Assembly: GCF_016026235.1 (NCBI RefSeq)
Contig: NZ_CP065613.1
From: Escherichia coli
GTDB taxonomy: Bacteria; Pseudomonadota; Gammaproteobacteria; Enterobacterales; Enterobacteriaceae
DNA: 64,000 nucleotides
Strand: one strand, 5' to 3'
Shown: piece by piece, positions 15,371 to 15,589 of the stretch
Position numbering within the stretch: position 1 is the first letter of the stretch
Layout of the letters: each line of letters opens with the position of its first letter
Program-made: the position numbers and the translations under genes
The notes under the pieces: model-generated
Seen by the model: the letters and a program-made list of their open reading frames with translations, nothing else
What the model was told of the DNA's origin: nothing
Database searches by the model: none

Positions 15371-15589
15371 TTAACAAGCGCCTGAAAGCAGAAGACCAGT
15401 GGTAAAAAAGTGATTTACTTTCTTGCCACTGGCCTCCCAGTTCCCCCGATTGCCATGTTTTCCTTTTCGCATGTAACTACCTTTCCCTTTCTTATTTTTC
15501 TCTACGCGCTGTCGGAATAAGGGATCATGTAGTAATGCTTCTATCGCATTATCCTTTATCTGCCCTTTAGTATGCTGATATCGGCTCAT
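15371..15589 (-). CDS. arfA: alternative ribosome-rescue factor ArfA (YhdL), 72-aa full ORF
   Basis: [51 protein letters not shown]...; 3' end overlaps the mscL stop convergently. Confidence 0.88.

Follow-up and report, generated by a model that had tools for sequence, protein, structure and literature searches.

The expression of arfA is controlled through a stem-loop in its transcript, at which termination or RNase III cleavage yields a non-stop mRNA, and the product of that mRNA is tagged by tmRNA unless trans-translation is saturated (PMC10070815, PMC8012679, PMC3581467). The work on this non-stop regulation by Garza-Sanchez 2011, Chadani 2011 and Schaub 2012 is referred to here as it is summarised in PMC8012679 and PMC10070815. 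RNase III cleaves the arfA transcript alone in vitro, and therefore an antisense partner is unnecessary for processing; the published products are a 24-nt RNA (arfA nt 166-189) and a 30-nt RNA (nt 190 to the stop), both from a 54-nt fragment (PMC10070815). The original prediction for the locus described here, made from the sequence and its open reading frames, had given a matching account of ArfA regulation, in which a transcript cut by RNase III or terminated within the ORF is a non-stop mRNA that is de-repressed once tmRNA runs short, and had expected a processing hairpin near the arfA 3' end; in this it agrees with the literature.

The 3' end of arfA also has a described antisense partner. 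In K-12, the mscL 3' UTR reaches 64 nt into arfA and is complementary to the 3' part of the arfA coding sequence, and the arfA fragment that RNase III sets free works in antisense on the mscL mRNA and reduces its half-life (Morra 2023, PMC10070815). RNase III also cleaves the mscL 3' UTR in vitro, cross-regulation of mscL and arfA at the promoter level was not seen, and an influence of the mscL 3' UTR RNA on arfA was put forward by Morra et al. as speculation only (PMC10070815). The demonstrated direction of regulation is from the arfA sRNA to the mscL mRNA. The pair is also among the RNA-seq-supported excludon overlaps in ExcludonFinder (PMC12288877).

As for insertion sequences (IS), IS10 carries at its transposase-5' end a strong outward promoter, pOUT, together with the 69-nt antisense RNA-OUT (Rfam RF00240). 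A precedent for an IS acting on a neighbouring convergent gene through an outward promoter is IS481 in Bordetella pertussis, where transcription from Pout gives the antisense RNA Rfi2 on fim2 (PMC11774165). IS activity at the trkA-mscL-arfA locus itself is described from Shigella flexneri, in which arfA was lost and tmRNA is essential (PMC3581467); in the strain described here, in contrast, arfA is intact and mscL alone was struck.

The window that we analysed comprises 64,000 nucleotides of contig NZ_CP065613.1 from the Escherichia coli assembly GCF_016026235.1. Compared with the mscL-arfA pair and yrdG of K-12, the genes, their orientation, the 4-bp TTAA overlap and the sequence from 15303 to 15478, with the mscL 3' end, both stops, the hairpin and the sRNA in it, are identical, whereas ISEc60 splits mscL here and so deprives the sRNA of a functional mscL mRNA (Table 1).

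Table 1. Features of the mscL-arfA region in the window (position 1 is the first base of the window)
Feature	Position	Strand	Basis
mscL 5' fragment, codons 1-68 and the first two bases of codon 69 (206 bases)	13660..13865	+	Pfam MscL profile positions 1-60
Target-site duplication, left copy, 10 bp, GGGATATCCC	13856..13865	.	boundary comparison
ISEc60, 1294 bp, IS4 family, IS10 group; terminal inverted repeats CTGAGGGATCCCCAGAAAA and CTGAGGAATCCCCAGAAAA	13866..15159	-	RefSeq naming, boundaries
ISEc60 transposase, 396 aa, RefSeq start	13886..15076	-	RefSeq 'IS4-like element ISEc60 family transposase', PF01609, NF033591
Candidate outward extended -10, TGGCATAAT, pOUT-like, within the first transposase codons	15054..15062	+	permissive scan
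Predicted IS-end hairpin, arms 15069-87 and 15114-36, then U tract CUUGUUUUCU (15137-46)	15069..15146	+	fold
Target-site duplication, right copy, 10 bp, GGGATATCCC	15160..15169	.	boundary comparison
mscL 3' fragment	15170..15374	+	Pfam MscL profile positions 59-123 on the in-frame ORF 15036..15374
Small predicted hairpin CGCUUGUUAAGAGCG, both stop codons in the loop, then a U-rich run	15366..15380	-	terminator-like match and folds
Tetranucleotide TTAA common to both stops	15371..15374	.	mscL TAA at 15372-15374 (+); arfA stop is the reverse complement of 15371-15373
54-nt arfA 3' fragment, RNase III-released (arfA nt 166-219)	15371..15424	-	K-12 yrdG, b4846; cleavage mapping
arfA CDS, intact, 72 aa	15371..15589	-	ORF list, Pfam, RefSeq
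mscL 3' UTR (+1 to +64), complementary to the arfA hairpin region, itself a hairpin	15375..15438	+	extent from Morra 2023
arfA regulatory hairpin, RNase III substrate (arfA nt 146-206); core helix 15389-15439	15384..15444	-	fold and Morra 2023 mapping

The arfA-mscL junction and the arfA hairpin

The ORF listing of the window gives the gene order trkA-mscL-arfA-zntR-yhdN-rplQ-rpoA around arfA, and the region differs from that of E. coli FDAARGOS_943 (NZ_CP065615.1) at 3 of 8051 bases. The ArfA product matches the Pfam ArfA profile PF03889 over residues 4-45 with 89.5 bits (cutoff 25.5) and is identical to the widespread RefSeq protein WP_000092696.1, which is annotated as ArfA in the near-identical FDAARGOS_943. 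The gene itself differs from its K-12 counterpart at nt 6, 102 and 111, all three changes being synonymous, and the promoter region, ORF, hairpin and 3' end of arfA are the same as in K-12 or carry synonymous changes only. The two genes converge with a 4-bp CDS overlap, TTAA, which is the arrangement of a cis-antisense or excludon pair. That the arfA stop overlaps the mscL stop at 15371-15374 was therefore correctly predicted, since TTAA lies in both ORFs, and its description of the pair as antisense at the 3' ends is likewise correct and already published (PMC10070815, PMC12288877), the convergent overlap being real, although in this strain, with mscL interrupted, the mscL-side transcript is doubtful.

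What did not hold up is the association of this overlap with the disruption of mscL, as the arrangement is species-wide and earlier work has dealt with it as an antisense pair. The K-12 MG1655 annotation (mscL 3438024..3438434, arfA 3438431..3438649) has the same 4-bp overlap, and within the window 15371-15450 is identical to K-12, the longer stretch from 15303 to 15478 being without any difference. Among 5426 complete E. coli genomes, the 429-bp junction made of the mscL 3' fragment and arfA was contiguous at 95% identity or more in all except one (5425), and the last 80 bp of arfA were present at the same threshold of at least 95% in 5422. The arfA/mscL geometry is accordingly not peculiar to this strain; it is the conserved wild-type layout and not a product of chance. 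The region is an ordinary E. coli trkA-mscL-arfA-zntR region, in which arfA and mscL are convergent and share four bases as they do throughout the species.

The regulatory hairpin of arfA lies inside the ORF, upstream of the stop codon, as expected for a gene regulated through a non-stop mRNA. It folds with a predicted dG of -31.4 kcal/mol (z -4.5), none of 200 shuffled sequences being as stable, into an interrupted helix of 14+8 bp with a 5-nt loop, and four outer pairs extend the core to 15384-15444. Its sequence is identical to that of K-12 and coincides with the published stem-loop at nt 146-206, and we could detect no sequence-level difference from the system in which RNase III and tmRNA regulate arfA. 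The original prediction had proposed folding about 15371-15430 to find the processing hairpin; a hairpin is found where it was expected, but that range loses the 5' arm.

Mapped onto the window, the published RNase III cuts fall at 15425/15424 (after nt 165) and 15401/15400 (after nt 189). By identity with K-12, cleavage at these two sites would leave a truncated mRNA without a stop codon, the product of which would be tagged by tmRNA and degraded, and if trans-translation were saturated, active truncated ArfA would accumulate. The freed 3' fragment would be complementary to the mscL 3' UTR, as is the fragment that lowers mscL mRNA stability in K-12. The K-12 annotation carries an ncRNA, yrdG (b4846, 3438431..3438484), described as 'arfA-derived small regulatory RNA', which is exactly the last 54 nt of arfA; a literature search for yrdG together with arfA returned no papers, and this annotation is the sole source of the name. 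On the opposite strand, the segment corresponding to the mscL 3' UTR also folds stably (predicted dG -24.8, z -4.25). The small terminator-like hairpin at 15366-15380 may be where full-length arfA transcripts end.

Natural variation was seen in this hairpin. A variant common in E. coli, present for example in ATCC 25922 and EE72d, has C in place of U at arfA nt 195 (15395 in the window), turning a G·U pair into G-C and shifting the predicted stability from -31.9 to -34.6 kcal/mol with the structure preserved. In ATCC 25922, a change at nt 209 results in ArfA G70D, in the dispensable tail.

The ISEc60 insertion in mscL

ISEc60 has inverted repeats of 19 bp with one mismatch. Its transposase matches PF01609, scores 360 bits against NCBIfam NF033591 (cutoff 152) and shares 36% identity with the transposases of IS10A/ISVsa5 over 93% of the length. 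With a DDE transposase, inverted repeats and a short target duplication, the element has the features of the IS4 family and, judged on its sequence, belongs to the IS10 group. Literature searches for ISEc60 and ISSfl1 gave no more than brief mentions in surveys of genomes. From the terminus of the IS to the arfA stop there are 211 bp, which bears out the figure of about 210 bp that had been given.

The reading frame of the mscL 5' fragment enters the IS and stops at 13867-69. There is no uninterrupted ORF over the PF01741 profile, as a functional MscL would require, and RefSeq annotates the two pieces as pseudogene fragments. When the IS and one copy of the duplication are removed in silico, the result is an ORF encoding a protein identical to K-12 MscL; therefore, the insertion is recent and the sole lesion. 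The strain is an mscL null through a recent ISEc60 insertion at codon 69. Such an insertion of ISEc60 in mscL was found in 2 of the 5426 complete E. coli genomes, and about 36 copies of the element are present in this genome lineage.

In the second of these genomes (NZ_CP141736.1, 3257-4570), ISEc60 sits at exactly the same position of mscL and in the same orientation. The backbones of the two genomes differ at 68 sites in 8 kb and the IS copies at 14 sites. Sharing of the disrupted allele by recombinational transfer was rejected as the simplest reading, SNPs being found up to 48 bp to the left and 143 bp to the right of the IS, along with the 14 differences between the IS copies. The two cases look like independent hits on a hot spot. 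The target site in mscL is a palindrome, GGGGATATCCCC, and related elements at two other loci are flanked by GGGGATATCC (L015, about 100-115 and 1404-1415) and GGGGCCTACCCC (L014, about 95-105 and 1397-1408). Taken together, the flanks suggest a GGGG-N4-CCCC target preference for the ISEc60-type group, to which the symmetric hot-spot consensus of IS10 is comparable; such a preference would account for the repeated hits in mscL. Another IS was found in the mscL of E. coli HeN100 (NZ_CP044443.1, 1010-2620), where the gene is split by the IS5-like ISKpn26 about 125 bp from its stop codon, with arfA intact. It appears, then, that mscL is sporadically hit by IS elements in E. coli, and arfA was spared in all three of the cases seen.

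The end of ISEc60 that faces arfA

The end of ISEc60 towards arfA is the transposase-5' end. A scan for the standard sigma-70 consensus returned no outward promoter at this end or anywhere on the plus strand of 14520-16109. For a hybrid promoter at the junction of IS and mscL, with its -35 in the IS and its -10 in the flank, nothing plausible was seen by eye, and the consensus scan agrees. A permissive scan did return a candidate, the extended -10 listed in Table 1, which is kept as CATAAT or CATACT in 14 relatives of the IS, and the start predicted for it, at about 15069, is the first base of the hairpin at the IS end.

This hairpin is predicted to be very stable (dG -39.2, z -6.7), and the U tract that follows it ends 14 bp inside the IS. 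It is long, at 68 nt with a structured loop, and the U tract is interrupted; the loop exceeds the limit of the terminator scan, which missed the hairpin, and it was detected by folding. An anti-Shine-Dalgarno sequence, CUCCUU, lies at 15086-91 across the last base of the stem and the loop and complements the Shine-Dalgarno of the transposase, and the transposase start codon has its complement in the stem. A pIN-like promoter is predicted on the minus strand (AAGACA, a 17-nt spacer and TCTAAT, with TG upstream), and between its mRNA and the antisense RNA there would be an overlap of about 36 nt, compared with 35 nt in IS10.

This end was aligned across 14 elements of 70-99% identity, which comprise variants of ISEc60, ISSfl1 and relatives found in Salmonella, Klebsiella and Yersinia; all of them keep the -10-like element as well as the hairpin and the T run. 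The consensus fold of the 14 includes one compensatory pair, AU in 6, UA in 5 and CG in 2, and 96% of the cells in the alignment pair on the plus, outward strand versus 90% on the minus, transposase strand. The arrangement resembles the pIN/pOUT/RNA-OUT system of IS10 in that the predicted hairpin RNA lies opposite the transposase, starts a few bases inside its start codon and would cover both the Shine-Dalgarno and the AUG. It differs in that a U tract follows the ISEc60 hairpin, which ends some 14 bp short of the IS terminus, whereas RNA-OUT ends at nt 47 of IS10, and in that the ISEc60 promoters are predicted ones. The Rfam RNA-OUT model RF00240 gave no match at E up to 1 in 13000-16500 or at ISSfl1-type ends, while the IS10A control scored 85.9 bits. 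In layout, therefore, the predicted elements of the ISEc60 end are RNA-OUT-like, and the end is not a member of the Rfam RNA-OUT family. We read 15069-15146 as a putative RNA-OUT-like antisense RNA, predicted to be about 77 nt long (15069-15145), with a terminator that ends within the IS, and we infer that outward transcripts from the candidate promoter would mostly end inside the element. As a by-product of this analysis, the ISEc60/ISSfl1 group appears to own an RNA-OUT-like antisense hairpin outside the Rfam RNA-OUT model, and our literature search found no paper on such a module in ISEc60, ISSfl1 and their relatives.

An ORF of 112 aa on the plus strand (15036-15374) starts inside the IS and continues in frame into the C-terminal half of MscL. 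Its ATG precedes the candidate outward start, and its frame crosses the stable hairpin of the IS end; this chimeric ORF looks like a mechanical by-product of the insertion.

Transcripts that entered the IS from the mscL promoter would also meet a further stable hairpin on the plus strand (13966-13993, z -5.4), which is situated some 100 bp into the element from the transposase-3' end and has CAGTTTTAAT after it. It may or may not act as a terminator of such read-in transcription. We do not claim it as a functional element, as it lies in coding sequence and is kept in one of two diverged relatives, the other being a degraded, pseudogene copy. The Rfam scan of 13000-16500 at E up to 1 returned nothing for arfA or the IS end and a single sub-threshold match, to 'Histone3' (13513-13559, 18.4 bits against a gathering score of 34), which is false and corresponds to the terminator-like hairpin just past trkA.

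Antisense RNA over arfA with and without the IS

It had been predicted that outward transcription from the IS would increase antisense RNA over the 3' region of arfA. Our analysis does not support this: the scan gave no standard promoter match, the candidate is an extended -10 only, and a terminator-like hairpin comes next. Transcripts from the mscL promoter would meet the stop at 13867-69 and then 1.3 kb of untranslated IS, with one terminator-like plus-strand hairpin at 13966-93 and another at 15069-15146. Transcripts from the candidate promoter within the IS would meet the conserved terminator-like hairpin before they could leave the element. With the IS standing between the mscL promoter and the overlap, and with these hairpins in it, antisense RNA over arfA is thus likelier to be lowered than raised; the layout of the locus makes a fall at the arfA 3' end more likely than a rise, and the mscL promoter is probably impaired in this strain in driving transcription as far as the mscL 3' UTR. 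For arfA itself, we expect regulation to be essentially unchanged and canonical, because processing is intramolecular and the arfA sequence is unaltered. What the IS most clearly brings about is that MscL is lost and that the arfA-derived sRNA no longer has a functional target.

Alternatives to this expectation were also weighed. The first is that the IS, by blocking convergent transcription of mscL and removing the 3' UTR partner, lessens interference or duplex formation, and that arfA mRNA or free sRNA rises modestly. In its favour, mscL and arfA behave as an excludon-type pair in RNA-seq (PMC12288877), the mscL 3' UTR has complementarity with the arfA hairpin region and is cut by RNase III too (PMC10070815), and past the stop at 13867-69 there would be 1.3 kb of untranslated IS with the hairpins at 13966-93 and 15069-15146. 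However, no cross-regulation at the promoter level was found and an effect of mscL on arfA is speculative (Morra et al., PMC10070815), and tmRNA tagging dominates ArfA output, such that small changes in the mRNA may be invisible. We consider a modest rise of this kind unlikely.

The second alternative keeps the original prediction, namely that ISEc60 is transcribed outward through the mscL 3' fragment, raising antisense RNA and altering arfA processing or abundance, either through an intermolecular RNase III duplex or through interference from convergent transcription. The orientation fits, as the transposase-5' end, where IS10 has its strong outward pOUT, faces arfA, and TGGCATAAT at 15054-62 points outward and is conserved in the relatives. 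The outward promoters of IS10 and IS481 yield read-through, the IS481 transcript being antisense on a neighbouring gene (PMC11774165), and the lineage carries about 36 copies of ISEc60. On the other hand, the standard promoter scan returned nothing that faces outward, and the candidate start lies at the foot of a stable, conserved hairpin whose U tract ends 14 bp inside the IS. [quoted passage not shown] Moreover, the hairpin of arfA suffices for its cleavage, the known regulation runs from arfA to mscL with no cross-talk detected at the promoter level (PMC10070815), and the IS also removes the native antisense transcript driven by the mscL promoter. An increase in antisense RNA by this route is therefore rather improbable.

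A joint version of the two can be envisioned, in which either the ISEc60 end has an active, IS10-like outward promoter with a leaky terminator and gives, in this multi-copy ISEc60 strain, a new antisense transcript over the mscL 3' fragment and the arfA hairpin, or loss of the mscL transcript frees the sRNA, and either event shifts the levels of ArfA or of the arfA sRNA. We give this reading little credence; if it were true, by either route, a natural IS insertion would have rewired the link between ribosome rescue and the osmotic channel. Finally, the idea that the overlap is an artefact of annotation or ORF calling, or that arfA is a decaying remnant beside a pseudogene, could appeal to the tiny size of ArfA and to its 17 3'-end codons being dispensable for activity, but it is effectively ruled out by the conservation and identity data, with a strong Pfam match, a protein identical to the widespread WP_000092696.1, nucleotide differences from K-12 that are synonymous only and an arrangement kept in more than 5400 genomes.

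The reading that we prefer, and consider likely, is that of a canonical arfA beside a disrupted mscL. Everything from the overlap and the hairpin to the RNase III cuts and the antisense link is already known for K-12 and unchanged here, and the part specific to this strain is the IS alone. With mscL naturally null and the arfA-derived sRNA deprived of its target, the lineage could serve to test RNA feedback from the mscL side on arfA, the question raised by Morra et al. (PMC10070815).
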